A stretch of 51,502 nt of DNA from a virus. Lineage: Duplodnaviria > Caudoviricetes. The notes beneath the pieces are model-generated. The model was not told the DNA's origin. It saw only the letters and a program-made list of their open reading frames with translations, and did not search any database. Of this stretch, positions 2,702-51,502 are shown piece by piece. A program made the position numbers and the translations under genes. How positions within the stretch are numbered: position 1 is the first letter of the stretch; every line of letters begins with the position of its first letter. The stretch spans positions 1-51,502 of IMG/VR virus record IMGVR_UViG_3300042991_000788. One strand, 5' to 3'.

Positions 2702-3118
2702 TTATTTATGTGTATTTAGTAAAGGTAGGTTAGTCCTCCCTCTCTTTTTTATTGCAATAATATTCATTTGACATAAAAGGATAAGTAGGTTTTCTAAATC
2801 TTTCTTAACTATATCGAACATAGGATAATCTCTTTTAAGAAAAAAAAGAATTTCATCTAAATCTTTGGAGTCAATCATCCAACCATTTATAAGGTCAAAC
2901 AAATTTGCATATTTAACTTGTCTTACTTCTTCCTTTTCTTCAAAGTTGTGAGTATTTTTATTAGCATTAAAATCTTCAGATACCTGGTCTATAAGCTTAC
3001 AGTAACGCCAAAATATACGAACAAAAGGCGTCCATTTATAGCCATTCCAGTAAATTCGTTTTCTTATAAAAATTGGCCCACTTGCTGTTTGCCATATTCC
3101 AAATGAAATCCAGAGCAT
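2702..3118 (-). CDS. Hypothetical protein; C-terminal half paralogous to 3196..3567
   Basis: Shared F(N/D)ANKxTxxFEEKxEVxQxxYAxLxDLxxGWxIDxKxLDEILF...QMNII segment. Confidence 0.75.
   Translation of the reverse strand: MLWISFGIWQTASGPIFIRKRIYWNGYKWTPFVRIFWRYCKLIDQVSEDFNANKNTHNFEEKEEVRQVKYANLFDLINGWMIDSKDLDEILFFLKRDYPMFDIVKKDLENLLILLCQMNIIAIKKRGRTNLPLLNTHK
2706..2728. promoter_or_regulatory. 23-bp palindrome family, degenerate copy 1
   Basis: TTATGTGTA TTTAG TAAAGGTAG. Confidence 0.6.
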
Positions 3119-3171: not shown

Positions 3172-3194
3172 CTGTGTGTATTTAGTACACATAG
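3172..3194. promoter_or_regulatory. 23-bp palindrome family, copy 2
   Basis: CTGTGTGTA TTTAG TACACATAG. Confidence 0.9.
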
Positions 3195-5727: not shown

Positions 5728-5750
5728 CTATGTGTATTTAGTACACACAG
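5728..5750. promoter_or_regulatory. 23-bp palindrome family, copy 3
   Basis: CTATGTGTA TTTAG TACACACAG. Confidence 0.9.
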
Positions 5751-8355: not shown

Positions 8356-8378
8356 CTATGTGTATTTAGTACACATAG
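8356..8378. promoter_or_regulatory. 23-bp palindrome family, copy 4
   Basis: CTATGTGTA TTTAG TACACATAG. Confidence 0.9.
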
Positions 8379-8386
8379 ATTGTTTT

Positions 8387-8818
8387 TTACTCTTGCTGCA
8401 TTCGAGCAAGCAATTCTTGCATTGCTTTGATTTGTGCGGCACGCTGGGGAACGGAAAGTTTACTCAATTTGGTTTCCAATTTTTCTTCCTCACTCTTTCG
8501 AGTTCCACCGAGAGTGGGTTTCCAGTTGTGAGTATTGCTATCTACGTCGAATAAAAGTTCTTGAATTTCTTCCTCGTCCTTACCTGCAGCTAACCAGCTC
8601 CGCATCTTTCCTTGAAGGGTGAATAAAATGTGACCAATGACCATCTGGGTAACTACTTCCTCGGAAAAGATTGCTACCATCTCATCGATGGAATCGCCGA
8701 AGTTGTATTCGATAGTACAACTTTCACCTTTGTCGTTTAGGTAGGTATGTTTACCTTCTTTGTCATTGAGTTTTAATTTTGCGATTGCATCTACTGTTAA
8801 AGTTGCTGATACTTGCAT
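8387..8818 (-). CDS. Hypothetical protein
   Basis: 143 aa, AGGAGG RBS, flanked by two palindrome copies. Confidence 0.8.
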   Translation of the reverse strand: MQVSATLTVDAIAKLKLNDKEGKHTYLNDKGESCTIEYNFGDSIDEMVAIFSEEVVTQMVIGHILFTLQGKMRSWLAAGKDEEEIQELLFDVDSNTHNWKPTLGGTRKSEEEKLETKLSKLSVPQRAAQIKAMQELLARMQQE

Positions 8819-8845: not shown

Positions 8846-8868
8846 CTATGTGTATTTAGTACACATAG
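8846..8868. promoter_or_regulatory. 23-bp palindrome family, copy 5
   Basis: CTATGTGTA TTTAG TACACATAG. Confidence 0.9.
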
Positions 8869-11293: not shown

Positions 11294-11316
11294 CTATGTG
11301 TACTAAATACACACAG
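11294..11316. promoter_or_regulatory. 23-bp palindrome family, copy 6 (extended arms)
   Basis: CTATGTGTA CTAAA TACACACAG inside GATAAAACTAC...GTAGTTTATC. Confidence 0.9.
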
Positions 11317-11389: not shown

Positions 11390-12088
11390 CTAAAGTTTTT
11401 CCTCTAATACTTTCATCCCTTCATCATCAAACCAGATTTTTTCTTGCTTACTAAGACCATCATAACCCGCAAATTCAGGATTTCTTGCCCAGCTTCTTAC
11501 TTTTTTCTCCATTCGTTCAAGTTCTATTCCTTTATAATCAATTAAAGGTTCATTCAACGCATCAGGTTCACCCTTCATTCCTTCATTCCCTATAGTGGAT
11601 TGATACAATTCATCCGCCCTTGCCTGAATCATAGCAGGACTTACCCCTGCTAATGCCCTTACCCCTTCCTCTCTCCCAGGCAACTGGGCAAGAATGGAGA
11701 AATCAGTTCCTATTCCTGTTTCCCCTTCTCCAGACAATTCTAATTTCTCATATTCCCTCGTAATGTTCTTCGCAGTTGACCTATCCCCTTGAGAAATACT
11801 ACCTGCTGACATTAATCCCTTTGCGACCAGATACTGTTGGGCGAATATAATTCCACCTTCCCTTAAATTCCTATCAATCACATCATATTCCCCCTCTGCT
11901 TTATCTACCAAACTTTCCATAACTGCACGAATAGCGGCAGATGTTGATTGGACAGTAATACCAAATTTTCTTTCTACAAGATTAATAAACCTCGCCAGAT
12001 ACACAATATTAACTCTTGCGCCTATACTTAAGGTTTTTATTCGTGTTCCGTAGATGGTTTGTTGGGTGGATTTGTTGTTTTTACTCAT
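11390..12088 (-). CDS. Hypothetical protein, possible N-terminal ribbon-helix-helix
   Basis: KTLSIGARVNIVYLARFINLVERKFG...STSAAIRAVMESLV strand-helix-helix pattern; function uncertain. Confidence 0.65.
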   Translation of the reverse strand: MSKNNKSTQQTIYGTRIKTLSIGARVNIVYLARFINLVERKFGITVQSTSAAIRAVMESLVDKAEGEYDVIDRNLREGGIIFAQQYLVAKGLMSAGSISQGDRSTAKNITREYEKLELSGEGETGIGTDFSILAQLPGREEGVRALAGVSPAMIQARADELYQSTIGNEGMKGEPDALNEPLIDYKGIELERMEKKVRSWARNPEFAGYDGLSKQEKIWFDDEGMKVLEEKL

Positions 12089-12983: not shown

Positions 12984-13006
12984 CTATGTATATTTAGTAC
13001 ACATAG
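12984..13006. promoter_or_regulatory. 23-bp palindrome family, copy 7
   Basis: CTATGTATA TTTAG TACACATAG. Confidence 0.9.
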
Positions 13007-15153: not shown

Positions 15154-15176
15154 CTGTGTGTACTTAGTATACATAG
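15154..15176. promoter_or_regulatory. 23-bp palindrome family, copy 8
   Basis: CTGTGTGTA CTTAG TATACATAG. Confidence 0.9.
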
Positions 15177-15265: not shown

Positions 15266-15314
15266 GTCGTTGTAGCGAGGAGTATAATCATTTTGTTTTT
15301 TGGGGACTGTATGT

Positions 15315-15806
15315 ATGAAAAACCTAAGTGTAGAACAAAGAGATGGTTTTGAACCTAAACGCCTTTTATCAAGGCAAAAGGAAATCCTGCGTTGGGTTTC
15401 TTCCGGTTTATACAACCATAAAGAAATTGCAGAAATATTAGGTGTTACCACAGCGACTGTGTGTAATATCATTAGAAGTGAACTTGGTCGTAAGACCTTA
15501 GCTATGTTTGAAGATTCGGCTGACTTTGATGTAGTACAAATGCAGGAAAGAATTAAAACTGCCGCTTCACTTGCTTTGACAATACAAGAAGATATGATGC
15601 TAGATGAGGAAACACCTTTACGCCTTAAGAAAGATTTAACCGATGGTTTCCTTAATCGAGCTGGGTTTAGCCCAGTGAATAAAAATATGAATTTAAATGT
15701 ATCCGCAGGCCTAACTCGTGAGGATATAGAACGAATAAAAACCCGTGCTCGAGAATTGGAAGAATCTGTTAGGGAGAATATTAATGAAAAACTTAATCAG
15801 CTTTAG
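15315..15806 (+). CDS. HTH protein, probable terminase small subunit
   Basis: YNHKEIAEILGVTTATVCNII helix-turn-helix, helical C-terminus, first gene of the late operon. Confidence 0.6.
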   Translation: MKNLSVEQRDGFEPKRLLSRQKEILRWVSSGLYNHKEIAEILGVTTATVCNIIRSELGRKTLAMFEDSADFDVVQMQERIKTAASLALTIQEDMMLDEETPLRLKKDLTDGFLNRAGFSPVNKNMNLNVSAGLTREDIERIKTRARELEESVRENINEKLNQL

Positions 15807-16620: not shown

Positions 16621-18990
16621 ATGAAAATAAAGTTATTGTTACTTCTTATCTGTGTGTACTTAGTAAATACAGTCAGTCCTCAATCCTTCAGGGGACTTTC
16701 ACCAAATGATTTAATGGTGAAGAAAGGTGCTTGGTATGATGTTCGGGCTTATAATGCAGGTGTTGCTACATTCAGTAACAATGCTATCAACCAAGCTATT
16801 GATTCTTGTGTTGCTAATGGTGGAGGTACTATTTACTTCCCCCCTGGGACTTATACCCTCAATGATAGTATATTTTTACAGAATAATTTAGTTCTCAAGG
16901 GTGCTGGAGCTTCTACTATTATTTTCGGAAGTCTTTCAAATGGGCCAATATTATCCGCTACCAGTCGTATAGACATTACCATATCTGATATGACCTTTCT
17001 TGGAATTTATGGGGAGTCAGGGATAGGTCTTCGATTTTCTGGTTGCTCTAATATAAAGATACAAAATTGTCATTTTACAACTTTATTATATGGTCTCCAA
17101 TTACTCGGAGCTACTAATGAAAATATCTCTGTTAATGGATGTACCTTTGAACAGTGTACTACAGAGATTCACCATGATGATTGGTCAGCACTTTCCGTAT
17201 ATGGTTCTAATTTTACTTCATATACCCCAGGCTCTTTTCAAGTTGAATCCTTACTTCGAGTAAGGACGGGTGATGTGGAAGTATTGGCAGGAGATTTGAG
17301 CATTGCAGGTAAGGTAGTATCTGGGGATAGTTTGGTAGGGGAAAATCTTAACATAGATCAAAACATCCTTGCAGGAGGTATTGTCTCTGCAGATTCAGCA
17401 TACCTAACCAATAATCTCAGAGTACAGGGAGCTGTTATTGTTCAGGATTCTATAACACTTGATACTAAACATGTCTTAACTACGGATAATATAGTTGAGA
17501 TTAAGCATCCTTTTTGGTTTGGCCCAGACCAATTCCCTCTAACTCAGTGTGTATTTAAAGATACTGCATATAATAATTTAACCAGTACTAGTCGTATTTA
17601 TGTTACTGCCGTCTCTGTTTTTAGTGGAACTAATGATAAAGCGAGATTAACATTAAATTGGTTACCGTATAAAACATCCTTATTTGATCCTCCAGATGCA
17701 ACCCAAAAATGGGCTGCAGTTTGTACAAGTACCTGGGGAGGAGGATTTGGGCCAAATAGAACAGGAGATGCTTCAGTTATAGTTAGAATAGATAGTGCTG
17801 ATTATAGCAATAAGTACATTTATTGTACTTTTCCAAATCAAAATGTAGGGACTTTTCCTTTAGCTGTAAATGATACTTTAGTTATTTATAACCCATTTGA
17901 GGCTGGTTGGGAGTGGAGTGAAGAACCTCTCTTATCTCCAAATTCTTATGTACAATGGAGATATTCTTATTTAAGTGCTGGGCCTACTTTTCTACACAGT
18001 AATGGTTATTTATACATGTTGGTAAATGGGGCAAAAACAATTTCAGGAGAGTCTGCTTTACAATCTATAGGTGTAGCTAGAGTGCATCCAGATTCTATCT
18101 TTACTGCTTCAGCTTGGGAATATTTAAATAGTGATACAGCTCTCATGGATACTTGTACCGCTAAGGGTAGAGGAAGAGGTATCCTAGCAACTTCAATGAT
18201 TAAGTTACGAGATATAGATGCTTATATAGTTTATACTATGCAACATGACGCTACAACAGCTTGGGAAGTATCCTATTTTGTAATGACAGAAGATTTGGAA
18301 ATCTTAGAAGATTTTGGTACAGATATAATTACACCTAAACCTGCTTCTTATGATGCTGGAGCAAATATAGGTACCCTTAGTAGGGGGTTGGGTGCTCCTT
18401 CTGTGATAGAGTATGGTGGAAAATATTTAATGTTATTCTGCAATAGGCATTGTGCAACTACTACTTATGCTGCTCTTGACCATTGGTCCATCTGGGAAGC
18501 AACTTCTACCTATGCAAGAGGGCCTTTTGCTGCAGGAAGTGATAGCATTCTTGCTTCCCATAATAATGAAAGTTTAAGTTATCGCTCTGCTTACCCTGAT
18601 ATGGCTATAATGTTTCTTTTCAAGGGGCGTATTTATGCTCTAATGAGTGGGACTAGCCAATATAGACCTTCAGGATCTAAAGCAAATAGACAGTTTGGTC
18701 TCATCTATAAAGATGAAAGAACTGCATCTTCTCCCTGGGTAGAGGATACAAGAAGTCCTTTATGGATTAATGTTATGCAAAAGTACGATAGTTATGACGC
18801 GTATCCAGGTATTTTTGGTACAGGTACAGGAACAGGAAATAATTATTGGTTTGCTTCTGATCATAGTGGAGGGTATCCTACTTTTTTTAGTAATGTCAAT
18901 GATGGTTTTGCTTATATCTTTTTTGCCTGTAATTCTGGTGCTGATGATTATCGAGTTTGGGGTATGCGACTTAATTCTGAAGATTGGTAA
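16621..18990 (+). CDS. Tailspike-like protein: signal peptide, pectate-lyase-like beta-helix, possible C-terminal glycoside-hydrolase beta-propeller
   Basis: YDVRAYNA...AINQAIDSCVANGGGTIYFPPGTY; PSVIEYGGKYLMLF; MKIKLLLLLICVYLVNTVSP|Q. Confidence 0.75.
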   Translation: MKIKLLLLLICVYLVNTVSPQSFRGLSPNDLMVKKGAWYDVRAYNAGVATFSNNAINQAIDSCVANGGGTIYFPPGTYTLNDSIFLQNNLVLKGAGASTIIFGSLSNGPILSATSRIDITISDMTFLGIYGESGIGLRFSGCSNIKIQNCHFTTLLYGLQLLGATNENISVNGCTFEQCTTEIHHDDWSALSVYGSNFTSYTPGSFQVESLLRVRTGDVEVLAGDLSIAGKVVSGDSLVGENLNIDQNILAGGIVSADSAYLTNNLRVQGAVIVQDSITLDTKHVLTTDNIVEIKHPFWFGPDQFPLTQCVFKDTAYNNLTSTSRIYVTAVSVFSGTNDKARLTLNWLPYKTSLFDPPDATQKWAAVCTSTWGGGFGPNRTGDASVIVRIDSADYSNKYIYCTFPNQNVGTFPLAVNDTLVIYNPFEAGWEWSEEPLLSPNSYVQWRYSYLSAGPTFLHSNGYLYMLVNGAKTISGESALQSIGVARVHPDSIFTASAWEYLNSDTALMDTCTAKGRGRGILATSMIKLRDIDAYIVYTMQHDATTAWEVSYFVMTEDLEILEDFGTDIITPKPASYDAGANIGTLSRGLGAPSVIEYGGKYLMLFCNRHCATTTYAALDHWSIWEATSTYARGPFAAGSDSILASHNNESLSYRSAYPDMAIMFLFKGRIYALMSGTSQYRPSGSKANRQFGLIYKDERTASSPWVEDTRSPLWINVMQKYDSYDAYPGIFGTGTGTGNNYWFASDHSGGYPTFFSNVNDGFAYIFFACNSGADDYRVWGMRLNSEDW
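16650..16672. promoter_or_regulatory. 23-bp palindrome family, copy 9 (inside CDS)
   Basis: CTGTGTGTA CTTAG TAAATACAG. Confidence 0.75.
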
Positions 18991-18993: not shown

Positions 18994-19016
18994 CTGTGTA
19001 TACTAAATACACACAG
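18994..19016. promoter_or_regulatory. 23-bp palindrome family, copy 10
   Basis: CTGTGTATA CTAAA TACACACAG. Confidence 0.9.
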
Positions 19017-19031: not shown

Positions 19032-19054
19032 CTATGTTTACTAAATATACACAG
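19032..19054. promoter_or_regulatory. 23-bp palindrome family, copy 11
   Basis: CTATGTTTA CTAAA TATACACAG. Confidence 0.85.
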
Positions 19055-21589: not shown

Positions 21590-21612
21590 CTGTGTATATT
21601 TAGTACACATAG
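21590..21612. promoter_or_regulatory. 23-bp palindrome family, copy 12
   Basis: CTGTGTATA TTTAG TACACATAG. Confidence 0.9.
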
Positions 21613-25308: not shown

Positions 25309-25331
25309 CTATGTTTACTAAATACACACAG
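25309..25331. promoter_or_regulatory. 23-bp palindrome family, copy 13
   Basis: CTATGTTTA CTAAA TACACACAG. Confidence 0.9.
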
Positions 25332-32054: not shown

Positions 32055-32082
32055 CACAGAGAGGTTTAATCGCCTCTCTGTG
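32055..32082 (+). terminator. Hairpin after capsid gene (terminator or mRNA stabiliser)
   Basis: CACAGAGAGG-TTTAATCG-CCTCTCTGTG, weak U tract. Confidence 0.6.
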
Positions 32083-32100
32083 TATATTTAGTACACACAG
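32078..32100. promoter_or_regulatory. 23-bp palindrome family, copy 14
   Basis: CTGTGTATA TTTAG TACACACAG. Confidence 0.9.
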
Positions 32101-37684: not shown

Positions 37685-37707
37685 CTATGTTTACTAAATA
37701 CACACAG
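37685..37707. promoter_or_regulatory. 23-bp palindrome family, copy 15
   Basis: CTATGTTTA CTAAA TACACACAG. Confidence 0.9.
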
Positions 37708-37722: not shown

Positions 37723-37745
37723 CTGTGTTTACTAAATACACACAG
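37723..37745. promoter_or_regulatory. 23-bp palindrome family, copy 16
   Basis: CTGTGTTTA CTAAA TACACACAG. Confidence 0.9.
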
Positions 37746-37752: not shown

Positions 37753-40700
37753 ATGAGTGAAGATATTATAAAACTCCGTCCAGAAGATATTGAAGACGAT
37801 GTTAGTTTGAAATTAGACTCTGCTGATGAGGGTATTATTAAATTAAAACCTGAAGATATTGAAGAAGATATACCACAATTTACTGAGAGTCCAACCCAGG
37901 ATAAACAGTCTCTAACTCCTCCTATTCCTGGGGAGGACTCTTATTTAGCTAGACTGGATAAAGGAGTATATAGTGCTTATAATTTATTAGCAGATGCTTT
38001 TCACTTTAATCAGTTCTTATCTCAAACTGTGGGTAAGTATGGTACTCCTGAACTTATGGTAACTGCAGTAAGTCAGGTTATGCCTGAAGATGTAAAGAAA
38101 GATATGCAGAATAGGTATCAACTTATTGCTGATTACTTTACACGTAAGGCAGAAGCTAAGCTTGAAGAAAATGGCCCTTTTCCTGTTGATATAGAGATAA
38201 ATAGTGTAGGTGATTTTATTACTCAACTACCTGAAGTCTTTTTAGAAAACCTTCCTATGTTAGGAGTATTTGCAGCCTCTATGTTAGGTGGTCCTGGGTT
38301 AAGTATTACAACTGGGACTTCTATTGCAGGGGGGAGCTCTCTTAGAGCTACGGAGGAATATGAAAAAAATACTGGCACTGTAGTTCCTGTTTGGCAGAAA
38401 GCTGCTACATCAATAACTGTGGGTGTTATAGATGCTGCTCTTGAGTATGTTGGTCTTAAGAGTATGGGAGCAGTTGGTAGACAAGCTGAGGGTGCTCTTG
38501 CTAATATAGCTAATAAATATTTACAAAAATTAGCACAGGGTGGAGTTGCTGTAGTAACTGAAGCTATGACTGAAGGTGTACAGGAAATTAATCAAATCCT
38601 TGCAGAATGGATTACTACAGGACAGTTGCCTCCGAATATAGGAAAAAGATTACTTAATGTTATACATGGTGGTGTAGCTATAGGTGTTGGCGGAAGTACT
38701 CTTAGCGGAACTTTTGGTTATATTGGGGAGAGTGTTAAGCCAAAACCTGGATTAATTGGTCAATATGCTCAAGCTATGCAGAGTAAAAATGTTGAAGAAG
38801 CTGGACGTATTCAGCAACAGATTATGGAAAAAGATCTGATTAATATTTCAGTTGATGAAGAAGGTAAGTTGAAATTTTCTCCTCTTTCTGTAGAGCAAAT
38901 GGAAGAGATGATTCTGAAAATGAAACAAACTTCTGTTGAGCTTACTGGAGAAATAGGTAAAACTGTAGAACCTGAAGTAGGGCAACTTGAAACTACTCCT
39001 CCAATGCAACCAGCACAACCTGAAGTTATTCAGCCTGAGTTGGAAGTTGTACAACCGGAAGCGCTTGTAGGGGAGGTACAAAAAGGAACTACAGTAAAAG
39101 AACCTGAGCAAATGGAATTAATTGAGGCTTCTATAAGTGAAACATTAAAGCCTGAAAAAGTATTGGAATCTGAGAAAGTAGAATCAGAAATAGTAACTGA
39201 AAGACAAGAAGTAAAAAATAAAATTACTACTGGTTTTTATATTAATCCTACGCCTAATGGAAGTCTTCTTCCTGGACTAAGGGTAAATAAAGATGATAAT
39301 ATTGAACCTCATTCTGTTGAAGTTACAGGGGAGCATAATTTAAAACAAACGTTATTAGAACAAAAAGCAAGTATTAAGAATAAACTAACCCGAACTATAA
39401 TTGAAAGATTAATTCCTTTTATCCCAGATGATGCTTTATGGCATACTTATGCAGATTCAGATTCTAATATTGGTGGTAGCTATGATCCTAAATCAGGAGT
39501 TATTCTTATAAATACTAAAGAGGGTAAGTTAGATATTTTAACAAATCCTCTTTATTTATTCCATGAAACAGTACATGCTTTAACTCTGAATACCTTTTTT
39601 AAAGATAAAAATACTCTTACAGAAAATGAAGCTACCTTTGCTAAGGAAATAAAATCTTTACAGGGTCAAGTGGCTATAGCTTTAGAACAATATTTTAAAC
39701 TTAAACCAAAAGCAACTAAGTATAAAGGGATACCTAAAGACTTTGTACTTAATATGATGCTTAGGAATGAAATTGAGTTTATTAGTTATGCTTTAAGTGA
39801 TATACAGTTTCAAACTGCTTTAAAATCTTTAGAGTTTGTAGGAGAAAATAAACCTAAAACTTATTGGTCTCTCTTTTTAGAAAAGGTTCGCAAGTTACTT
39901 AATTTAACTGAACAACCTGGGTTTATTAATGCACTTGATAAAGTCTTAAGTGTTACTGATCAATACTTTTACAGTCAGGTAGAGAAGAAACAAGTATTAA
40001 AAGAAGAAAAAATTAAGGATCTTCCTACCACTGATAGTAAGTCTGATAAAAATTATTCTCAACAAACAATACCCGTTAAGGTTAAGACTACAAAGGAAAA
40101 GTTATTCCTTGAATGGGCTCGTACTCAGATAGATCAGCAAAAATTACTTAAAGATTTTCTTGAGCAGAACAGAGTAAAACCTGAAAAACTTCCGGCAATA
40201 AATTCTGGGAAGAAGATAAATGAGGATGTTCATGGAAAAGCAAGTGATAATAGTAAAGAAGTTCCTTATGTAAAAAGTAAACTGGTTAAGTTTTTTACTG
40301 AGTATATCTGGTTTCCTTCCTTTATCTATATGAGAAAAGATCTAGGGATATTAAAAGATCAAGCTAATGAATTAGGATTAAAGGGAAAAGAGAGAAGAGC
40401 CTTTATACAAAAAGGACTTCCTATGAATACAGGTACTATGGGAGAGCCCTGGAAACTTGGGCATCAGATAGTATCTGCTGGAATGATGTTGGATCATACT
40501 ATTAGAGAGTATACTCAATGGTTGAATAAGTTATCCTATGGAGCTAAAAAAGAAGAACTTGTACATTCAAGAGAGGCTATTGAATATGCTTATCTTGCGA
40601 AGGATAAAAGTTTAACTGAGCAAGAAAGACAAACAGCTGAGGAACATCTTACTCAATTACTTATGAAATATCCTGGACTCAAAAATTCTGTTCTTGGTAC

Positions 40701-42954
40701 TGAGGGTTATGGGGGTATTATAGAATTGTTTGAGTATGTAAAAAAAAGATATCAGGACAGCCAACGTAATCATTTAAAGATGAAGTTTAATCCTGAGATT
40801 AATCTTATCATAGATAAAGTAGTACAGTCTGCAAGAGGTAAGCAAAGTAATAGTGTTAATCTTGAAGAGATTAAAACACTTTTGACTAAGCTAAACATTG
40901 AGGATATGGTTAGAGAAACTTATAAGAAAAGTAAAAAGGCTGATTGGGACGAACTTAAGGAAAAACAAAAGAAATTAAAAAGAGCATCTTTTAAATCTCA
41001 CTTAGCTACTAAAATTTTTAAAGCAAGTAATGAAATTCTTACTATAGATAAATGGGGGTTAAAGAACTACATTACTAATATTGAACTTGGTTCTTATAGA
41101 ATCATTGATAGTGATGGGCATACTGTAGGGTTTGGAAAGAATGTAAAAGAAGCTAGAAGAAAAGCTTTTGATCTAAGAGCTGAAGCTGCTAGAGCTGGAT
41201 TGCCCGAACCAAAATATGAAATAACTCAAAACTTTTCCCCTATCAAACCTACTACTGCAAGAGAAAAAGAGGGGTTAAAAGGATATAGTAATTTATTTGA
41301 AGTCCTTCCTCGATATGTCTATGCTATGGAGAAACGTATTCAATATGAACCTCTCATGGATGATTTTAAGAGAGCACAAAAGAAACATCCTGATGTGTTT
41401 ACTGAAGATGTGAAAAGAATAATGCAGGCTCAATTTGACGCTGTACTTGGTAATAAGTATTCTTTTTCTGATCAAATTTTTGATGAGTATATCGCCATTC
41501 CTATGGGATGGGAAACAGGAATGTTTAGTACTGGACTTACTAAAGTGAGGAAAGTTACTGCTAATCTTTTACTTGGTTATAGACAGGTTGCTTCTTTAAT
41601 TAATATAACGTCTGGCTTTGGTCAAACTTGGTCAGTAGTAGGTAATACTTATTATGCGAAAGCAAGTGAAGCTGTAAGAACAGGGAAGTATACTAATTCA
41701 TTTGGGCGTATAGTGGATATTAGTAAAGTATTAAATAGAATTGAAGAGAAAGGTTTACTAGGTATTGATTTTGCAGTTAATTCTGATGGAAGTATTAGTA
41801 CAAGAACTCCACTCTGGAAGCCTTTAGGAACTTTTGCTCTTGCTGAAAAGTTTATTCGTCCGCATGCTTTTGCAGCAAACTATATCTATCAATTAGAAGT
41901 GTTAGGTAAGACTGATTTCGAAGCTGAAACTGCTGCTTTAGAGAATATGTATTTTCAACAGGGTATCTATAACATCGCAGCCTTACCCCATATGCTAAGA
42001 AGTCCTATGGGTAGAACTATTGGGATGTTTCGATCTTATATGATTAACCAGATTCAGTTCATGTCTACTTTAAGAGGAAAGCAAATAGCAAGGTTTGTAG
42101 GAGTTCAACTTGCTTTAGCTGGCCCGAGGGGAGTATTGTATACACTAAAGAGTATTCCTTTATTTGGAGCTTTAGGTTTACTTGATGATCTTGAAGAGTG
42201 GTTTGTTAAGGAAGAAACGAATCCTATTACAGGTATGGCTAAACGAGGTATCGGTGGTCTTGTAGGTACTGATATTACAGGAGCTGCAACTATGCAATTT
42301 CCTGATAGGCCAGAAGACTGGGGTGGTCCGATACTTGGAAAGATGGTACAGTTGTTTAAAGATGTAGTATTTCCTGGCTTAGCTGTGGGTGTAGGTGCAA
42401 TTACTGGTAAGCCTGCTCCTGCGTATGTTTCAGATGCAGGGATTAATTGGTTACAATCTCTTTCTCCTATGTCTTATTATTTGAATGATTTACTTGAAGG
42501 TACTCTTTTCTGGGAAAGTGATATTGAAGTTAATGATTTAAATGATGGTTATGCTTTACTTAGAGATAAACTTCAAAGACCTAATATCTGGATACGAGAT
42601 AGTAATGGTAATAAAGCGTATCAAATAGGAGGACTTCAGGATAGAGTATTACTTGGGCTAGGTGCAGCTCCGATTAAGAAGAGTGAGTATAAAGTACTGA
42701 AAAATATTTGGCAAAGAAATGCTAAAATTATGCAGGAGAATAGAAATAAGTGGTATAGTAAAGTTGTAAAGTCTCTTCTTGATGGAAGAGGTTTAACTAA
42801 GGATTTAGTCCAGGATGGTATTCTATACGGAGTTGATATGAAACTAATTCCTGATGCCTATAAATTTAGGCAAATGTCACCCCAAGTAAGGGAGGTTCTA
42901 AAAGCTAAGTTATTAGAAAAGGCTGATGCTTTAGACCACTTTAATATAAAATAA
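37753..42954 (+). CDS. Large ejection/polyvalent protein with zincin metallopeptidase motif
   Basis: 1733 aa; EAMTEGVQE motif; GGSYDPKSGVILIN...LFHETVHALT (HExxH)...NEIEFISY. Confidence 0.75.
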   Translation: MSEDIIKLRPEDIEDDVSLKLDSADEGIIKLKPEDIEEDIPQFTESPTQDKQSLTPPIPGEDSYLARLDKGVYSAYNLLADAFHFNQFLSQTVGKYGTPELMVTAVSQVMPEDVKKDMQNRYQLIADYFTRKAEAKLEENGPFPVDIEINSVGDFITQLPEVFLENLPMLGVFAASMLGGPGLSITTGTSIAGGSSLRATEEYEKNTGTVVPVWQKAATSITVGVIDAALEYVGLKSMGAVGRQAEGALANIANKYLQKLAQGGVAVVTEAMTEGVQEINQILAEWITTGQLPPNIGKRLLNVIHGGVAIGVGGSTLSGTFGYIGESVKPKPGLIGQYAQAMQSKNVEEAGRIQQQIMEKDLINISVDEEGKLKFSPLSVEQMEEMILKMKQTSVELTGEIGKTVEPEVGQLETTPPMQPAQPEVIQPELEVVQPEALVGEVQKGTTVKEPEQMELIEASISETLKPEKVLESEKVESEIVTERQEVKNKITTGFYINPTPNGSLLPGLRVNKDDNIEPHSVEVTGEHNLKQTLLEQKASIKNKLTRTIIERLIPFIPDDALWHTYADSDSNIGGSYDPKSGVILINTKEGKLDILTNPLYLFHETVHALTLNTFFKDKNTLTENEATFAKEIKSLQGQVAIALEQYFKLKPKATKYKGIPKDFVLNMMLRNEIEFISYALSDIQFQTALKSLEFVGENKPKTYWSLFLEKVRKLLNLTEQPGFINALDKVLSVTDQYFYSQVEKKQVLKEEKIKDLPTTDSKSDKNYSQQTIPVKVKTTKEKLFLEWARTQIDQQKLLKDFLEQNRVKPEKLPAINSGKKINEDVHGKASDNSKEVPYVKSKLVKFFTEYIWFPSFIYMRKDLGILKDQANELGLKGKERRAFIQKGLPMNTGTMGEPWKLGHQIVSAGMMLDHTIREYTQWLNKLSYGAKKEELVHSREAIEYAYLAKDKSLTEQERQTAEEHLTQLLMKYPGLKNSVLGTEGYGGIIELFEYVKKRYQDSQRNHLKMKFNPEINLIIDKVVQSARGKQSNSVNLEEIKTLLTKLNIEDMVRETYKKSKKADWDELKEKQKKLKRASFKSHLATKIFKASNEILTIDKWGLKNYITNIELGSYRIIDSDGHTVGFGKNVKEARRKAFDLRAEAARAGLPEPKYEITQNFSPIKPTTAREKEGLKGYSNLFEVLPRYVYAMEKRIQYEPLMDDFKRAQKKHPDVFTEDVKRIMQAQFDAVLGNKYSFSDQIFDEYIAIPMGWETGMFSTGLTKVRKVTANLLLGYRQVASLINITSGFGQTWSVVGNTYYAKASEAVRTGKYTNSFGRIVDISKVLNRIEEKGLLGIDFAVNSDGSISTRTPLWKPLGTFALAEKFIRPHAFAANYIYQLEVLGKTDFEAETAALENMYFQQGIYNIAALPHMLRSPMGRTIGMFRSYMINQIQFMSTLRGKQIARFVGVQLALAGPRGVLYTLKSIPLFGALGLLDDLEEWFVKEETNPITGMAKRGIGGLVGTDITGAATMQFPDRPEDWGGPILGKMVQLFKDVVFPGLAVGVGAITGKPAPAYVSDAGINWLQSLSPMSYYLNDLLEGTLFWESDIEVNDLNDGYALLRDKLQRPNIWIRDSNGNKAYQIGGLQDRVLLGLGAAPIKKSEYKVLKNIWQRNAKIMQENRNKWYSKVVKSLLDGRGLTKDLVQDGILYGVDMKLIPDAYKFRQMSPQVREVLKAKLLEKADALDHFNIK

Positions 42955-42955: not shown

Positions 42956-42978
42956 CTGTGTGTATTTAGTACACATAG
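42956..42978. promoter_or_regulatory. 23-bp palindrome family, copy 17
   Basis: CTGTGTGTA TTTAG TACACATAG. Confidence 0.9.
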
Positions 42979-46978: not shown

Positions 46979-46995
46979 CTTTCCTCCTTTTATAT

Positions 46996-47018
46996 CTGTG
47001 TTTACTTAGTAAACATAG
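46996..47018. promoter_or_regulatory. 23-bp palindrome family, copy 18 (overlaps stop of ParB-MTase gene)
   Basis: CTGTGTTTA CTTAG TAAACATAG. Confidence 0.88.
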
Positions 47019-48339
47019 ACCGACAAGTTTGGGTGTACTGGTTGTAGTAATATTCAGATAACTCAAATCCGATAGGGTACATCTCTAACAACTGTGCAGC
47101 AATTAAAGTCATACCACTACCTGCAAAGGGAACTAATACTCTTGACTTTGGAAGTGCAAATGTACTTAAGATTCTACTCATGAGTGTAAGTGGTTTTTCA
47201 TAGGGATGAATCTTTCTTTCCCGTGAAAGTGGAGCATGGGTAAAGATATCATCTTGTGGTTTGGTTAATTTAGGACTTCCTTTCTTAAAGTAAAAGAAGG
47301 GTTCTTTAGTATGATTTAGAGTGACATCTGGATTATTAGTATGCCCTCTCTTTTCTCCTTTGTACCAAAGTCCGTGGTAATAAGATGTACGAAATCCTGC
47401 TTGCTTACTCCAATCTTGAAGAGCTTGAAAGTATTCATAACCGAACCAGATTATAATCCAACTGTCTGCTGCAGCAACTCTATAACATTCAGCTAAGGTC
47501 TTTTGCATGAAGAGAGGGAAATCTGTTTTACTGATAGAGGTATAGTTATTAATTTTTTTGTCTAAATTAGCTCGCTTTGCTTGGTCTGTTTCCTCTATAG
47601 GATAATCAATATCTAAGTCTATGAGATTAATAGATCCATCAGGAATATCTTTGACAAGGGTGAAGAAGTCTCCTAAGAGATAATTGTTTAAAAGACTTTC
47701 ACAGGTTTTACTTTTCTCTCCAGGGGAAGTTTGATACTGTTCTGCTGCAATATCAAGTTTTGCAGTTCTCTTTGCAAGGGATATAGCTCTATGAATCTCA
47801 GCGCGAGTTTTTAATTGAGCAAGGTCTGGTAGTTCTTCTAACCAACCGGCTATCTCCAGATCCTGACTTACTTTACTTGTACTTATACCCAGCATACGTG
47901 CAGTATCTGCAGCACTATGTCCGACTGCCTTTGGACTTGTGGATGTTTTTTCTCCAAACTCAGCAATCCATAGGTCATGTAAAGTTTTTTGTGCTCTTAA
48001 TCTTTCTACGTCAGCCATGTCTTTACGTTTAAGGTTTTCTTCAAGTTCAATTGATCTGAACTCAAAAGGAGTAAGGTCACTTTTATAAATACGAACAGAG
48101 ATAACTGTTTTTTCAAGGGTAATCATAGCAGCTAAACGTCTACTACCGGCTATTAATTTGTACTTACCTTCCTCTTCAGTCTTCATTACTGCGATAGGGT
48201 GGATTAAACCTTTTTCCTTAATGGAAAGAGCTAATTCTGCAATATTACCTTTCTCAGTACGTGCAAGATTGGGGTCTAAAAAGATAGAGTCTATAGGTAT
48301 TTCTTTAAGTTCAATTTTTTGTTCTATTAAGTTACGCAT
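47002..48339 (-). CDS. ParB/Spo0J-like domain + HTH + N4/N6 DNA methyltransferase fusion
   Basis: LALSIKEKGLIHPI, LIAGSRRLAA, ENLKRKD; HTH SAADTARMLGISTSKVSQDL; HPYEKP, VPFAGSG, GFEL; catalytic motif reads DIDY. Confidence 0.88.
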   Translation of the reverse strand: MRNLIEQKIELKEIPIDSIFLDPNLARTEKGNIAELALSIKEKGLIHPIAVMKTEEEGKYKLIAGSRRLAAMITLEKTVISVRIYKSDLTPFEFRSIELEENLKRKDMADVERLRAQKTLHDLWIAEFGEKTSTSPKAVGHSAADTARMLGISTSKVSQDLEIAGWLEELPDLAQLKTRAEIHRAISLAKRTAKLDIAAEQYQTSPGEKSKTCESLLNNYLLGDFFTLVKDIPDGSINLIDLDIDYPIEETDQAKRANLDKKINNYTSISKTDFPLFMQKTLAECYRVAAADSWIIIWFGYEYFQALQDWSKQAGFRTSYYHGLWYKGEKRGHTNNPDVTLNHTKEPFFYFKKGSPKLTKPQDDIFTHAPLSRERKIHPYEKPLTLMSRILSTFALPKSRVLVPFAGSGMTLIAAQLLEMYPIGFELSEYYYNQYTQTCRSMFTK

Positions 48340-48583
48340 TATTCTGTTCCTTTAATAATTTTTCTAGTGTTCTTTTTAGTAGTTTTGGATTAGCTTTAAA
48401 CAACTCTTCTTGTTTCTTACTTAGGGTATAGCTTGTACCTACTCGTTTCTCTTTTGCAGTTCTTATAACATTCGCTCTGTATTTAACAGGAATAGCCCTG
48501 TTCTGTCGGATAACAGATAATAGGGCTATTCCTTGTAAGTTAGAGAGACTGGTTAATGTTTTCTTTAGGCTCTGAAGTTTCAT
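48332..48583 (-). CDS. Small basic hypothetical protein
   Basis: 83 aa, overlaps neighbours. Confidence 0.65.
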   Translation of the reverse strand: MKLQSLKKTLTSLSNLQGIALLSVIRQNRAIPVKYRANVIRTAKEKRVGTSYTLSKKQEELFKANPKLLKRTLEKLLKEQNNA

Positions 48584-48824
48584 CTTTGTCCTTTACTTCT
48601 TTAATCCAGTCCAATAAAGTAACATCACCAGCAATGATACTGGCGATGAAGATACGTCGATCCATAGGCTGAAGATTATCCATTACTTTGATTAGTTGTT
48701 TAGTAAGTGCTTGATATAAAGGAACTTTCACTCTCATAGCTCCGATATACTTATTCAACCTGTCAAATGTTTCCATCTCAAGAGTAACAGCAAATCTACG
48801 CATTGGAATGTCTTGCTTTAACAT
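48540..48824 (-). CDS. Small protein, possible ribbon-helix-helix regulator
   Basis: MRRFAVTLEMETFDRLNKYIG pattern; AGGAG RBS. Confidence 0.6.
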   Translation of the reverse strand: MLKQDIPMRRFAVTLEMETFDRLNKYIGAMRVKVPLYQALTKQLIKVMDNLQPMDRRIFIASIIAGDVTLLDWIKEVKDKDETSEPKENINQSL

Positions 48825-49399: not shown

Positions 49400-49417
49400 A
49401 GTTTTTCCTTTATATGA

Positions 49418-50179
49418 TTATTTTAATGCCTCCAATTCAGTCTCGAGCTTGGAGATCAATATCGATTTGCTTGATATTTCTTTCTTAAGATTTTGTGTTT
49501 TGCTATCTCGCCATTCGGATACTTTTTGAACATCAAGTTCAATGCCATAAGTCTTTGAGAGGCTTATAATTTCCTGACTTATAGGGTAAGTCTTTACGCT
49601 CTCAATAAATTTAAAAAGGGCATCTTCATAATTAGTAAATGGGGTAAATATTTCTGCATTTCCAGAACCATCATAATACTGATGCAGTCTAAAACATAGA
49701 CTTCCGTCATCTTCTCCAAAAAGAGATAATAATCTCAATTTGGAGGGGTTAAAATCACTCGCCCTAAAAAATTCTTCCCATGTCAATAACATCGGAACAC
49801 TATAATGTTTAATGACTACATGAGTAAAATTTCCTGATAAAAAATTAACGACTTTGACAAAACTTTCTGGGGAAACATTTTTTAAAGCTTTTGCAGCGTA
49901 TTCAATTTTAGCCTTCAAAAGGTTATGTTTTATCAAAAGCTTATCATTTAACTTTTCGTATTCATCGCGTTTATAATCATACATTATTTTCCATTGTTCC
50001 ATTTCTTTCTCACGCCATGAAACAACAGGGCTGTTATGCAAAGAGGTTACAATAAAGTTTTCACCTGATGGAATTTCTTCCCCATCAGAAATTAAAATTT
50101 CTTGGACAATGAATTGTTGGTTATTCAGCTTATCGATAATAGCTACCTTTCTATTGTCCGTTGTGTATTTTGTTTCCAT
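49418..50179 (-). CDS. Hypothetical phage protein (paralog of 621..1379)
   Basis: 253 aa, near-identical core. Confidence 0.85.
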   Translation of the reverse strand: METKYTTDNRKVAIIDKLNNQQFIVQEILISDGEEIPSGENFIVTSLHNSPVVSWREKEMEQWKIMYDYKRDEYEKLNDKLLIKHNLLKAKIEYAAKALKNVSPESFVKVVNFLSGNFTHVVIKHYSVPMLLTWEEFFRASDFNPSKLRLLSLFGEDDGSLCFRLHQYYDGSGNAEIFTPFTNYEDALFKFIESVKTYPISQEIISLSKTYGIELDVQKVSEWRDSKTQNLKKEISSKSILISKLETELEALK

Positions 50180-50219
50180 TCGTAGCTCCTATAAAAATAA
50201 AAATACCCGGTGAATTGAA

Positions 50220-50747
50220 TTATTCTTTTACTCGCTCCTGGCAGGCGTTTAATTTTCTGACATAAGATGCAATCTTTTTTTCCGCATCTTTGATTTGTCG
50301 TTTATACCAACCCACGTTCCACGAATAAGACTTTAATTTATCCTGCTTTATGAATTCGGCTCTTGTATAATCATCTTTTTCGCGTTCTGCGATTAATATC
50401 TCGCAATATCCCATCGCTTCGGCTTCAGTCTCATATGCGTGTTTACCCTCAATTAAATAATTGTTATTAAAAACATATTGAACACTTGTTTCTGTCAAAG
50501 TCGCTTCAAACCTAACACTTTCAATCATAACCCGCTGAACCGATTTCACGTATTCATTCTTGGTAACGTACCCCGTCGGGATGAAATCATTCACGCAATA
50601 AGTACATTCCGGATAAACCTTTTCGTCATTACCCAGAATTACTGTGATTTGTCTTTTCCCATGGCAAACCGGACAAACCTTTGTAACTATGCTTGGTTCA
50701 TATCTTGCTATCCAAACATAGTCGCCAACCATTTTAATCTCTTGCAT
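50220..50747 (-). CDS. Zinc-finger hypothetical protein (paralog of 1420..1947)
   Basis: CPVCHGKR, CTYC. Confidence 0.8.
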   Translation of the reverse strand: MQEIKMVGDYVWIARYEPSIVTKVCPVCHGKRQITVILGNDEKVYPECTYCVNDFIPTGYVTKNEYVKSVQRVMIESVRFEATLTETSVQYVFNNNYLIEGKHAYETEAEAMGYCEILIAEREKDDYTRAEFIKQDKLKSYSWNVGWYKRQIKDAEKKIASYVRKLNACQERVKE

Positions 50748-50882
50748 ATCAGGCTCCTTTTAAAAAAAATACCCGGTGAATTCCACTTGCCTACGTAACC
50801 ACTTGAAACGTACCCGTCAAAACGGGATGGAATCCACCGGGCATTTAACCGGCTTATGATTTTATGGTTATTTTGGCTCCCT

Positions 50883-50911
50883 AATATACAAAATAATCAT
50901 AAAAAAGTCAA
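50883..50911 (-). promoter_or_regulatory. Sigma70-type promoter
   Basis: TTGACT-17 nt-TATATT. Confidence 0.75.
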
Positions 50912-50941
50912 TAAAAATATTCATTTTTTAAAAAGTTTTTT

Positions 50942-51462: not shown

Positions 51463-51502
51463 ATAGCTGATTTTTTTTCCGCCTGAAACGTTTTTCCAAT
51501 TA

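Follow-up and report, generated by a model that had tools for sequence, protein, structure and literature searches.

The analysed window is the complete record of a phage, 51.5 kb in length, and its features of interest are collected in Table 1. On the minus strand it encodes a 445-residue protein that joins a ParB/Noc-type nucleotide-binding domain and a helix-turn-helix (HTH) to a β-class DNA methylase, directly preceded by two small conserved genes, and a 23-bp near-palindrome recurs in 18 copies scattered over the genome. No ParA is visible, as had been noted from the sequence alone: the Pfam AAA_31 model, the one ParA model used, finds no match across the whole record and matches all 14 control genomes. 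The cognate ParA ATPase that marks a ParABS system is accordingly missing from this complete record by the AAA_31 search. Neither an integrase nor a repressor is seen among the phage proteins scanned.

Table 1. Coordinates of the fusion gene, its domains, the adjacent small genes and the palindrome sites in the window.
Feature	Position	Strand	Description
ParB-HTH-methylase fusion gene	47002..48339	-	ORF, 445 aa; Pfam, TIGR00180, AF2 model, Foldseek
ParB/Noc-type N-terminal NTP-binding domain	48094..48312	-	residues 10-82; GxRR box at 65-68
Helix-turn-helix	47833..47911	-	residues 143-169; recognition helix from 154; AF2 model, covariation
β-class N6/N4 DNA methylase domain	47035..47526	-	residues 272-435 by Pfam
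Basic 83-aa protein	48332..48583	-	cluster c10; conserved, directly upstream of fusion
94-aa protein	48540..48824	-	cluster c15; conserved, two genes upstream of fusion
Palindrome site	2706..2728		decayed, 4 mismatches; in tandem duplication of gene-plus-site unit
Palindrome site	3172..3194
Palindrome site	5728..5750
Palindrome site	8356..8378		arms perfectly paired
Palindrome site	8846..8868		arms perfectly paired
Palindrome site	11294..11316
Palindrome site	12984..13006
Palindrome site	15154..15176
Palindrome site	16650..16672		degenerate; within first codons of ORF 16621..18990
Palindrome site	18994..19016		first of 38-bp-spaced pair
Palindrome site	19032..19054		second of 38-bp-spaced pair
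Palindrome site	21590..21612
Palindrome site	25309..25331
Palindrome site	32078..32100
Palindrome site	37685..37707		first of 38-bp-spaced pair
Palindrome site	37723..37745		second of 38-bp-spaced pair
Palindrome site	42956..42978
Palindrome site	46996..47018		over fusion stop and last codons; 17 nt upstream of DNA polymerase start

The fusion protein has the Pfam architecture PF02195 + PF01555. ParB_N matches with an E-value of 1.3e-9 (38.4 bits against a cut-off of 26.3), the NCBIfam model TIGR00180 (parB_part) extends over residues 10–150 (64.6 bits against a cut-off of 58.45), and N6_N4_Mtase covers the C-terminal half with an E-value of 4.5e-18 (66.5 bits against a cut-off of 26.7). The GxRR box reads GSRR and lies inside the string LIAGSRR, which the sequence-only reading had called intact; among the 120 listed homologues the box is GGRR in 114, GERR in four, and GSRR and GCRR in one each. 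A third nucleotide-binding box, ENxxR, is found at residues 101–105 and aligns by phmmer to the corresponding box of Noc and Spo0J. Across the same 120 homologues no variation is seen at G65, R67, R68, E98, N102, R105 or E112, and hardly any at E101; the ParB NTP-binding motifs hold 8 of the 16 invariant columns.

Modelled with AlphaFold2 at high confidence (pLDDT 93.2, pTM 0.80), the protein places its HTH directly after the N-terminal domain as a helix pair formed by residues 143–150 and 154–169. Foldseek aligns the N-terminal half with Noc, ParB and KorB, covering about 200 columns of Noc 7nfu and KorB 8qa9 and matching the KorB structure 8qa8 as well, while the best sequence match among solved structures is Noc 7ol9 (E 1.4e-14). 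The C-terminal half matches CcrM, M.BceJIV, MboIIA, RsrI and the PvuII methylase (E 1e-10 to 4e-14), and its motif IV (residues 243–246) precedes motif I (residues 405–409), which is the β-class order. The architecture proposed earlier, a ParB GxRR box followed by an HTH and a methylase of β-class order, is thereby upheld by Pfam, TIGR00180, the AlphaFold2 model and Foldseek. By its N-terminal fold and its modelled HTH the protein is a member of the ParB/Noc/KorB family in which a predicted N6_N4 methylase stands where the ParB-type C-terminal dimerisation domain, absent here, would be.

Motif I of the methylase has the SAM-binding form FxGxG, appearing as FAGSG in 93 of the 120 listed homologues. 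Motif IV of β-class enzymes has the catalytic consensus (D/N/S)PP(Y/F/W), from which the protein of the window and its 25 nearest homologues depart with DIDY in place of DPPY; among the 120 listed homologues motif IV is DPPY in 88, DIDY in 26, DPDY in four and DPPF in two. Because of this non-canonical DIDY, the methylation part of the model set out below may fail in this phage. The palindrome centre was considered as the methylase target and was not adopted: conserved though it is in the window, it varies within other genomes, G013, G010 and L102 among them.

Prediction of a complex of two fusion copies gives a score of 0.58 against 0.00 for the best control. Of 30 proteins whose solved structure is a pair of one chain, 20 attain this mark, as does 1 of 23 whose solved structure is a single chain. 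At least 94% of the contacts recur between runs, the partner pLDDT is at least 76, and the predicted interface lies in the methylase domain, formed by residues 300–367 and 393. Since dimers of β-class methylases have already been solved, this prediction is to be taken as a likeness to them and not as proof of a dimer.

The 18 sites were defined with a repeat finder and a degenerate pattern; the family is degenerate, so that an exact search with the palindrome core from the end of the fusion gene matched only itself. With at most one mismatch the degenerate 23-mer matches 16 of the 18 sites, and the reversed pattern used as a control matches none, in line with the roughly 18 dispersed palindromes counted previously. 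Counting ORFs of at least 60 aa, the 17-bp core lies wholly outside ORFs in 15 of the sites, where about 10% would be expected at random (binomial tail 6e-13). The three sites that touch ORFs are those at 2706 (at a gene end), 16650 and 46996; the last overlies the final five codons of the fusion gene together with its stop, an overlap that the first inspection had already pointed out. Typically a site begins 1–10 nt past one stop codon and ends 7–25 nt ahead of the next start, and its 3′ flank often runs on into a Shine-Dalgarno-like stretch. Convergent or terminal genes also have sites at their 3′ ends, and some sites occur as tandem pairs.

Within the sites the two arms vary independently, G–U pairs on the sense strand are not preferred, and most copies carry A–C or pyrimidine–pyrimidine mismatches on the transcribed strand. 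Both orientations of the asymmetric centre are found within one transcription block. The independent variation of the arms, together with the two orientations of the centre, fits a protein site on DNA.

An exact search of the viral contig collection with the degenerate 23-mer of the window finds nothing, and relatives were consequently sought through their proteins; single-sequence locus searches returned one relative or none, and alignment queries were used instead. The fusion has 182 homologues, with the same architecture in all 120 listed, and is carried by 13 of the 13 relatives searched. A de novo search to which no sequence was supplied recovers a private palindrome family in G000–G008, G010–G014, L102, MD01 and G020, and a family of at least three sites is present in 65 of 83 non-redundant sources; the 18 sources that lack one are mostly loci under about 15 kb, and the 15-kb fragment G023 likewise yields no family. 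Almost all related genomes or loci of sufficient length thus have a dispersed family of their own. A common plan runs through the clade, in which 9-bp arms flank a 5-bp A/T-rich centre and the inner arm bases differ from phage to phage; of the 57 best-defined families, 46 open the arm with the same two outer bases. The only named relative is the Desulfofustis phage MD01, whose paper, in the part available, does not refer to ParB and uses palindromes in the CRISPR sense only.

The fusion and a private palindrome family thus go together throughout a large phage clade, which is the co-occurrence that had been put forward as a check. Because the fusion is universal in this clade, co-occurrence by itself cannot tell it from any other clade-wide gene. 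Relatives that have the motif without the gene, proposed earlier as a counter-example, are not found within the clade; outside it, distant phages without ParB do carry other dispersed palindromes. Specifically, when loci of distant polymerase relatives that lack ParB are taken as a negative control, 35 of 42 have no family larger than three. Other dense palindromes do occur in five such ParB-less relatives, which means that a ParB is not needed for dispersed palindromes in general. Conversely, Mel-JY34, a distant fusion-bearing phage (27% identity), yields no palindrome family by the same method, and the picture for MW202489 is equivocal.

Covariation between protein and palindrome locates the association more narrowly. 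A first scan over 16 genomes compares 1,328 nine-residue windows from seven conserved families (PolA, the PD-(D/E)XK nuclease, the primase, the ParB-methylase fusion, a DUF669-like protein, an AAA_24 protein and cluster c10) with polymerase distance controlled, and the HTH of the fusion takes ranks 1–4 and 12 of the top 22 windows. An unrestricted scan of all clusters is dominated by those with 9–11 genomes, in which high r arises by chance; the comparison was therefore restricted to clusters with at least 14 genomes and later extended to a 57-genome set. In that set 283 windows along the fusion protein were scanned with whole-protein distance controlled, and the top nine windows for arm positions 1–9 and the top five for positions 4–9 all fall within residues 150–166, residues 152–160 reaching a partial Mantel r of 0.289 (permutation p 2e-4, 57 genomes). 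The recognition helix is hence the segment of the fusion that best tracks the palindrome across 57 non-redundant genomes, as the proposed test of HTH–motif covariation had anticipated.

Individual residues and bases can be paired in the same data. Of the 22 genomes with G at half-site position 6, 21 have His or Arg as residue 154, and of the 35 other genomes 4 do (Fisher p 1.2e-10); each of the two traits changes at least 12–13 times on the tree; His or Arg 154 facing guanine 6 would be a chemically sensible pairing. The top mutual-information pairs link residues 153–158 with arm positions 6–8. Moreover, among protein pairs less than 45% identical, the same hexamer is shared by 26 of 636 that have 0–1 of six helix residues in common, by 47 of 184 that have three, and by 7 of 33 that have four.

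Several results bear on how far these statistics reach. Mantel-type statistics are inflated by shared ancestry, and one window of the AAA_24 recombinase-like protein, for which no sequence specificity is expected, attains an equal partial r of 0.318 (p 2e-4, n = 52); one window of a 143-aa protein (8387..8818) reaches 0.25. Phylogenetically independent pairs are underpowered, with 6 supported, of which 3–4 are concordant and 0 (rarely 1) opposed, at a median p of 0.125. In addition, the half-site of 9–11 bp exceeds the usual reach of a single HTH, and its outer positions covary with methylase-domain residues instead, which the model leaves without explanation.

Taken as a whole, this evidence suggests that the ParB-methylase fusion probably reads the dispersed palindromes. 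The proposal itself dates from the sequence-only reading and now gains comparative support from the clade-wide co-occurrence, the helix covariation and the pairing of residue 154 with base 6, the physical binding of the protein to its sites being what we infer from these. As a site-specific DNA-binder of the ParB/Noc/KorB type, the fusion would sit as a dimer on the near-palindromes of its own genome, joined through its methylase domains, with each recognition helix (from residue 154) reading the inner bases of one 9-bp arm. Helix and palindrome would be re-tuned together in each phage of the clade, keeping the sites private to that phage. The conserved NTP pocket, comprising GxRR and ENxxR, may gate a clamp-like state in which the protein leaves its site and slides, as ParB, Noc and KorB do, and the outcome could be KorB-like control of neighbouring genes, cis methylation of the phage DNA, or both. 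Gene regulation of the KorB kind is proposed because the sites sit between one stop codon and the next ribosome-binding site.

A more elaborate version of this mechanism is conceivable, and we advance it only tentatively. Here the fusion would be an NTP-gated clamp whose gate is the methylase dimer, loading at the private palindromes and travelling from them to methylate in cis or to silence or coordinate genes, so that the whole would act as a self-identity system closed to the host chromosome and to rival phages. A few helix residues would reprogram its specificity by a readable code, of which His or Arg 154 for guanine at arm position 6 would be one entry, making the family a natural source of portable, mutually orthogonal DNA-loading modules, and the two conserved small upstream proteins might serve as clamp-locking or loading partners.

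Another DNA-binding protein of the phage could be the reader instead, most plausibly the product of 15300..15806, a HTH protein of the LuxR/sigma-70-region-4 type, and otherwise that of 48540..48824 or 48332..48583, in which case the covariation of the ParB HTH would be a by-product of shared descent or co-binding; we regard this as unlikely. That the AAA_24 window, a control taken not to bind DNA, equals the ParB helix in its Mantel score does indicate that such scores can arise without reading, and 15300..15806 both matches the Sigma70_r4 and GerE HTH models (E about 1e-5) and is widely conserved: clustering places it in 9 of 16 genomes, and a direct search recovers it in 4 of 5 relatives, one of which the ORF calls had missed. 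Its family, however, has near-identical recognition helices where the palindromes differ completely (G005 versus G011, G007 versus G014), its best covariation window lies outside its HTH (rank 19 of 1,265, n = 9 genomes), and no copy is detected in G002, a genome with 8 sites at 92% completeness. The small upstream proteins are syntenic with the fusion, 48540..48824 in 53 of 57 loci and 48332..48583 in all 57, and they match the families upstream of the fusion in relatives (profile E 1.9e-5 and 2.3e-7, respectively). Searches of Pfam, NCBIfam and Atlas leave both unexplained: the 94-aa protein has no Pfam match, and its weak MetJ or ribbon-helix-helix likeness (0.89–0.90, Atlas) is only a lead. 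Against a role as readers, their best windows reach r of 0.10 for the 94-aa protein and 0.15 for the other, compared with 0.29–0.30 for the ParB helix in the same genomes, their best ranks in the 16-genome scan are 150 of 1,137 and 246 of 1,122, and the 94-aa family is undetected in G001, G005, G006, G010 and G012, all of which have sites. The alternatives named at the outset, 11390..12088, 48540..48824 and the HTH at 15315..15806, therefore fare worse than the fusion, the first having no homologue in any of the 16 relatives, the second no covariation, and the third near-identical helices alongside differing palindromes. A host factor that binds the palindromes has a low probability, since it would leave the link to a phage-encoded helix without explanation, though differences in host range may play a part.

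Two further readings are more improbable still. As RNA hairpins, the palindromes would, for example, govern the processing or stability of transcripts, terminate transcription or occlude ribosome-binding sites, and would require no sequence-specific protein reader; they do lie in transcribed intergenic gaps, typically between a stop and the next start, a hairpin would cover the Shine-Dalgarno-like run that many 3′ flanks lead into, and one site (8354–8380) scores as a terminator-like hairpin. Yet the mismatches in most sites mean that RNA pairing is not kept, G002 has an identical arm asymmetry in 7 of its 8 sites, and in G004 and G007 arm positions 3–5 are wholly asymmetric with the outermost two bases kept. 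A plain hairpin would not require near-identical copies within a genome and rapid change between genomes, nor would a pure RNA role explain covariation with a protein helix, and we hold this account to be very improbable. Much the same standing, perhaps a shade lower, is given to phage-specific promoters, or promoter-plus-operator cassettes, for an RNA polymerase or a polymerase-directing factor. T7-like phages have 23-bp promoter sets, which about 18 intergenic 23-bp sites ahead of genes and private to each phage resemble, and large unannotated proteins remain, such as 37753..42954 (1,733 aa, no Pfam or PHROG match). The sites are nevertheless two-fold symmetric with centres that point both ways in one transcription block, tandem pairs stand 38 bp apart, and some sites lie at convergent or terminal 3′ ends. 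Additionally, no RNA polymerase is matched for ten large proteins searched against PHROGs and four against Pfam, sigma-70-like promoters show no enrichment (57 matches, where shuffled sequence gives 70 ± 10.5), and a promoter and terminator scan shows no systematic link with the palindromes. A T7-type promoter set, with its own polymerase and sites of one direction, is therefore not what the scanned large proteins and the centres describe.

The reading of the fusion as the palindrome reader accounts for a striking genome feature, identical intergenic palindromes that recur in many uncultivated phage genomes. Although common, phage ParB-fold methylase fusions have no assigned function or DNA site in the literature searched, nor did that literature yield a cognate dispersed site for any of them, although N6_N4 fusions that have been tested may appear in the datasets of PMC12704722. 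The present analysis offers a concrete candidate cognate site for one large fusion family, about 57 natural pairs of helix and site, and an initial rule relating residue to base. Should binding be borne out, the family would connect phage epigenetics or gene control with the CTP-switch ParB field (ParB, Noc, KorB, VirB, BisD), provide a way into how ParB-type HTHs change specificity, and perhaps yield orthogonal DNA-binding or DNA-loading modules.

Among known systems, mycobacteriophages L5 and Bxb1 have stoperators, a short sequence private to the phage that recurs dozens of times in small gaps between both early and late genes. Stoperators are asymmetric, 13–14 bp long, set in one orientation to transcription, and read by the HTH immunity repressor of a temperate phage. 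The likeness lies in the many copies between genes and in a single phage HTH reader, here a candidate; the sites of the window differ in being 23 bp long, two-fold symmetric and present in both orientations, rather than asymmetric and of a single orientation, and the proposed reader is a ParB-methylase. KorB also serves partition together with a ParA-type partner, whereas the phage record has no AAA_31 match. KorB of RK2 works as a sliding clamp that depends on CTP and controls distant genes, according to the available parts of PMC11790492 and PMC13584720. It shares with the fusion a ParB-family NTP-binding N-terminus and HTH, and it binds a short palindrome at many mostly intergenic sites of its replicon; many intergenic copies of one candidate operator are what the window contains. 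KorB differs in having its own C-terminal dimerisation domain and no enzyme, where the fusion ends in a methylase; its clamp-locking partners KorA and TrbA have no identified counterpart here, for which the conserved small upstream proteins are candidates.

Noc has sites outside intergenic gaps as well. It is a paralogue of ParB that lacks ParA, nucleates on 16-bp palindromes (NBS) and undergoes a CTP switch, as described in the part of PMC8429893 available. It is the closest solved structure to the fusion by sequence and likewise has no ParA partner, differing in being chromosomal, membrane-binding and devoid of a methylase. The ParB-CTPase fold joined to an N6_N4 methylase is itself among the fusions for which the accessible part of PMC12704722 reports enrichment in phages and prophages, which agrees with the earlier statement that such fusions are known in phages; N6_N4 fusions are absent from the NTP binders listed in that part. 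A further relation is suggested by the ParB-like activator of phage thymine dioxygenases (5mYOX), which act in post-replicative base modification (PMC13229309, as far as its available text goes). In both cases a phage ParB-family protein is coupled to a DNA base-modifying enzyme, the activator being, in that text, a separate ParB without an obvious DNA-binding domain, and the protein of the window being fused to its enzyme and equipped with an HTH.

The window holds 18 palindrome sites, identified by a repeat finder and pattern scans; 16 match the pattern with at most one mismatch, and a reversed control pattern returns none. Each 23-bp site consists of two 9-bp arms on either side of a 5-bp A/T-rich centre, with symmetry often running on into the two flanking bases at each side. 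The cores of 15 of the 18 sites lie wholly outside ORFs of at least 60 aa, against an expectation of about 10%, and a typical site starts 1–10 nt past a stop codon and ends 7–25 nt before the next start. At two loci, sites form tandem pairs 38 bp apart. The sequence-only reading had placed one palindrome across the end of the ParB-HTH-methylase fusion gene, and this is borne out by a site that overlaps the fusion stop codon, with the polymerase start 17 nt downstream of it. Arms vary independently within a site, A–C or pyrimidine–pyrimidine mismatches are frequent on the transcribed strand, and the asymmetric centre faces either direction inside a single transcription block, a pattern that fits two half-sites read on the DNA by a dimer. 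It fits neither a conserved RNA hairpin nor a directional promoter.

The record (51,502 bp, completeness rating 100%, 35.7% G+C) is organized into minus-strand blocks of replication and early genes, encoding the AAA_24 ATPase, a PD-(D/E)XK nuclease, primase, family-A DNA polymerase and 3'-5' exonuclease, and a plus-strand block of structural genes for tail spikes, large terminase, portal or adaptor and major head protein. The two record ends hold diverged copies of one gene pair, which could be a real terminal duplication; alternatively, a circularly permuted assembly could have joined two strain variants at its ends, and the actual genome would then measure about 48.8 kb. Iteron-like arrays in the gap between the divergent blocks may mark a replication origin or a switch region, and a head-to-tail repeat near the left end indicates a 9-residue protein repeat. 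Additionally, a gene-plus-palindrome unit is duplicated in tandem with a palindrome adjoining each copy, illustrating a route by which sites can multiply.

Positions of genes, sites and repeats in the window
Feature	Position	Strand	Detail
Replication and early gene blocks	1-13,000; 43,342-51,502	-	
Structural gene block	13,800-43,303	+	
Fusion gene	47002..48339	-	445 aa
Fusion motif IV	47602-47613		residues 243-246
Palindrome at fusion stop	46996-47018		
c15 family member	48540..48824		94 aa
c10 family member	48332..48583		83 aa
AAA_24 protein	5758-6570		recombinase-like ATPase
RHH-like ORF	11390..12088		
LuxR/sigma-r4-type HTH protein	15300..15806		
Duplicated record ends	618-1947; 49415-50747		83-90% DNA identity (repeat finder); families D3, D4, D14, D17
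End-copy pair, first gene	621..1379; 49418..50179		
End-copy pair, second gene	1420..1947; 50220..50747		
Iteron-like arrays	12175-12898		12-bp direct repeats (D8, D9, D18)
Head-to-tail repeat	1-282		27-nt unit x7 (D1), within open-ended ORF 2..589
Tandem gene-plus-palindrome unit	2689-3458		2741-2994 vs 3205-3458, 77% identity (D7, D11); palindrome copy at 2706 decayed

Pfam places ParB_N at residues 10–82 and N6_N4_Mtase at residues 272–435 of the fusion, both over cut-off, and the canonical ParB model TIGR00180 of NCBIfam is above cut-off on residues 10–150. Against solved structures, residues 1–222 match Noc best (7ol9, E 1.4e-14), followed by ParB/Spo0J of Helicobacter, Thermus, Myxococcus, Caulobacter and Bacillus and, more weakly, KorB, with alignments spanning both the GxRR and the ENxxR box. 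The AlphaFold2 model, for which 120 homologues were used, is confident (pLDDT 93.2, pTM 0.80) and shows an HTH at residues 143–150 and 154–169, then a long helix and a methylase fold; in Foldseek, Noc, ParB and KorB match its N-terminal half, and the beta-class methylases CcrM, M.BceJIV, MboIIA, RsrI and PvuII methylase match its C-terminal half. Together, the profile, solved-structure and model matches identify a canonical-type ParB N-terminal domain with a DNA-binding domain and not a remote ParB/sulfiredoxin-like nuclease fold. Pfam, TIGR00180, AlphaFold2 and Foldseek thus uphold the earlier claim that a ParB GxRR motif, an HTH and a beta-class methylase share one gene, and its companion claim holds as well, since the AAA_31 model for ParA finds none encoded in the whole record.

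Where canonical ParB carries a C-terminal dimerisation domain, the fusion has the methylase. In two-copy prediction, it pairs via this methylase domain through residues 300–367 and 393, with a score of 0.58 against 0.00 for the best control, at least 94% contact agreement between runs and partner pLDDT of at least 76. Of 30 proteins solved as one-chain pairs, 20 attain this mark, compared with one of 23 solved as single chains; because dimers of related methylases are already solved, the predicted dimer indicates likeness to those dimers and is not proof of pairing. Motif IV departs from that of canonical beta-class methylases, reading DIDY instead of DPPY. The same DIDY occurs in all 25 nearest homologues (42–52% identity), and the 120 listed homologues divide into DPPY (88), DIDY (26), DPDY (4) and DPPF (2). 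From this conserved non-canonical catalytic motif, methyl transfer may be altered or lost in the subfamily.

Homologues of the fusion number 182 at E ≤1e-20, and all 120 listed among them contain both Pfam domains, measure 421–497 aa and often lie on contigs of 43–51 kb. Gene order is kept in 16 related genomes or loci: AAA_24 ATPase, DUF669-like protein, c15 (~85 aa), c10 (basic, ~78 aa) and the fusion, followed by a few small genes, DNA polymerase and primase; the 94-aa and 83-aa proteins of the window belong to the c15 and c10 families. The fusion is present in 13 of 13 relatives searched. A sequence-blind search, in which near-palindromes of fixed layout (9-bp arms, 5-bp spacer) are collected and clustered by similarity, reveals a private palindrome family in virtually all relatives that offer sufficient sequence. 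These comprise 7–8 sites in G001, 8 in G002, 13 in G005, 16 in G007, 12 in G011, 13 in G013, 9 in Desulfofustis phage MD01 and 10 in the distant G020; the same search gives no such family in the distant fusion-bearing cyanophage Mel-JY34 and an ambiguous result in MW202489. After two further collection scans (104 sources, 83 non-redundant), 65 of the 83 have a family of at least three sites and 57 a well-defined one. The first two arm bases are the same as in the window in 46 of these 57, and arm positions 6–9 vary between phages. A palindrome lies just upstream of the c15-c10-fusion operon in G002, G003 and G009; in G004, G007 and G008 one adjoins the 3' end of the fusion gene, which is also the arrangement in the window. 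Sites so placed would fit autoregulation.

In a control set of 42 loci from more distant, ParB-less polymerase relatives, 35 are without a family above three members. Five such relatives (L044, L045, L065, L070 and L095; genomes G015–G019), with ParB_N in none of the five, carry 8–16 short palindromes per 16–22 kb, with a sequence of their own in each phage and shorter than the fusion-clade sites. Dispersed palindromes as such therefore do not require ParB. Most copies fall inside ORFs (3/8, 10/14, 12/16, 13/15 and 6/11 in the five phages), some within the polymerase gene, and these palindromes are treated as a different class.

The fusion occurs throughout the clade, so co-occurrence cannot decide which protein reads the sites, and the question becomes which protein segment changes along with the palindrome. 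Across 16 genomes, 1,328 nine-residue windows from seven families (PolA, PD-(D/E)XK nuclease, primase, the fusion, DUF669-like, AAA_24 and c10) were scanned with polymerase distance controlled, and the fusion HTH takes ranks 1–4 and 12 of the top 22. Across 57 genomes and 283 windows along the fusion, with whole-protein distance controlled, the nine highest-ranked windows for arm positions 1–9, like the five highest-ranked for positions 4–9, all fall within residues 150–166, the recognition helix. Residue-by-base mutual information pairs residues 153–158 with arm positions 6–8. At residue 154, which opens the recognition helix, His or Arg occurs in 21 of 22 genomes with G at arm position 6, as against 4 of 35 without it (Fisher p 1.2e-10); on a tree from which the HTH columns were left out, each trait changes no fewer than 12 times. 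His and Arg are classical guanine-contacting side chains. Moreover, all three genomes sharing one particular arm core have an identical seven-residue helix start, and protein pairs below 45% identity have the same arm hexamer in 26 of 636 cases when zero or one helix residue is shared and in 47 of 184 when three are. The outermost arm positions 1–3 covary with methylase segments 242–256, 280–290 and 382, motif IV included, and not with the HTH, which may be a lineage effect or may reflect the methylase domain touching the outer flank.

Several findings weigh against the fusion as reader, among them the missing family in Mel-JY34 and the palindromes of the five ParB-less relatives. The Mantel statistics also retain shared ancestry, and one AAA_24 window equals the ParB helix (partial r 0.318, p 2e-4, n=52); a window of the protein at 8387..8818 reaches r 0.25 against the palindrome, and an independent-pairs test has six supported pairs only (median p 0.125). 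The AAA_24 window begins near alignment residue 88 and ranked 13th in the 16-genome scan. The sequence-only reading had offered an RHH-like ORF or the c15 member as alternative readers, and both do worse than the fusion: the former is unique to this phage in a comparison with 16 relatives, and the latter, like the c10 member, shows no link to palindrome sequence, the best windows of the two small upstream proteins giving r = 0.10 and 0.15 against 0.29–0.30 for the ParB helix in the same genomes. The LuxR/sigma-r4-type HTH protein is conserved among relatives, but its recognition helix is near-identical in genomes with quite different palindromes; its covariation scan covered nine genomes. The fusion is the likely reader of the palindromes.

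The analysis shows the architecture, the sites and a co-evolution localized to the reading helix; on the proposed mechanism, two copies of the fusion, held together through their methylase domains, would bind at each palindrome. Eight of 16 residues invariant across the 120 homologues sit in ParB nucleotide-binding motifs, which makes retained nucleotide binding by the N-terminal domains probable. These domains could close into a clamp that moves off the site and slides, as in ParB, Noc and KorB (PMC7053999, PMC8429893, PMC11790492). In early and late modules alike, sites fall in the gap from a stop codon to the next ribosome-binding site, so a KorB-like regulatory role is as plausible as cis-targeted methylation; given DIDY, this particular member may or may not act as an enzyme. 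The full scheme of a clamp that marks DNA in cis is a tentative and rather doubtful one.

The fusion of a ParB fold to an N6_N4 methylase is a known, phage-enriched architecture, for which no assigned function or site was found (PMC12704722). The ParB-like activator of phage thymine dioxygenases is a separate protein that is reported to lack an obvious DNA-binding domain (PMC13229309). In the literature searched, the phage MD01 paper included, no account of dispersed cognate sites for a ParB-methylase was found. The reading of dispersed palindromic sites by a ParA-less or regulatory ParB is itself already known from Noc and KorB.
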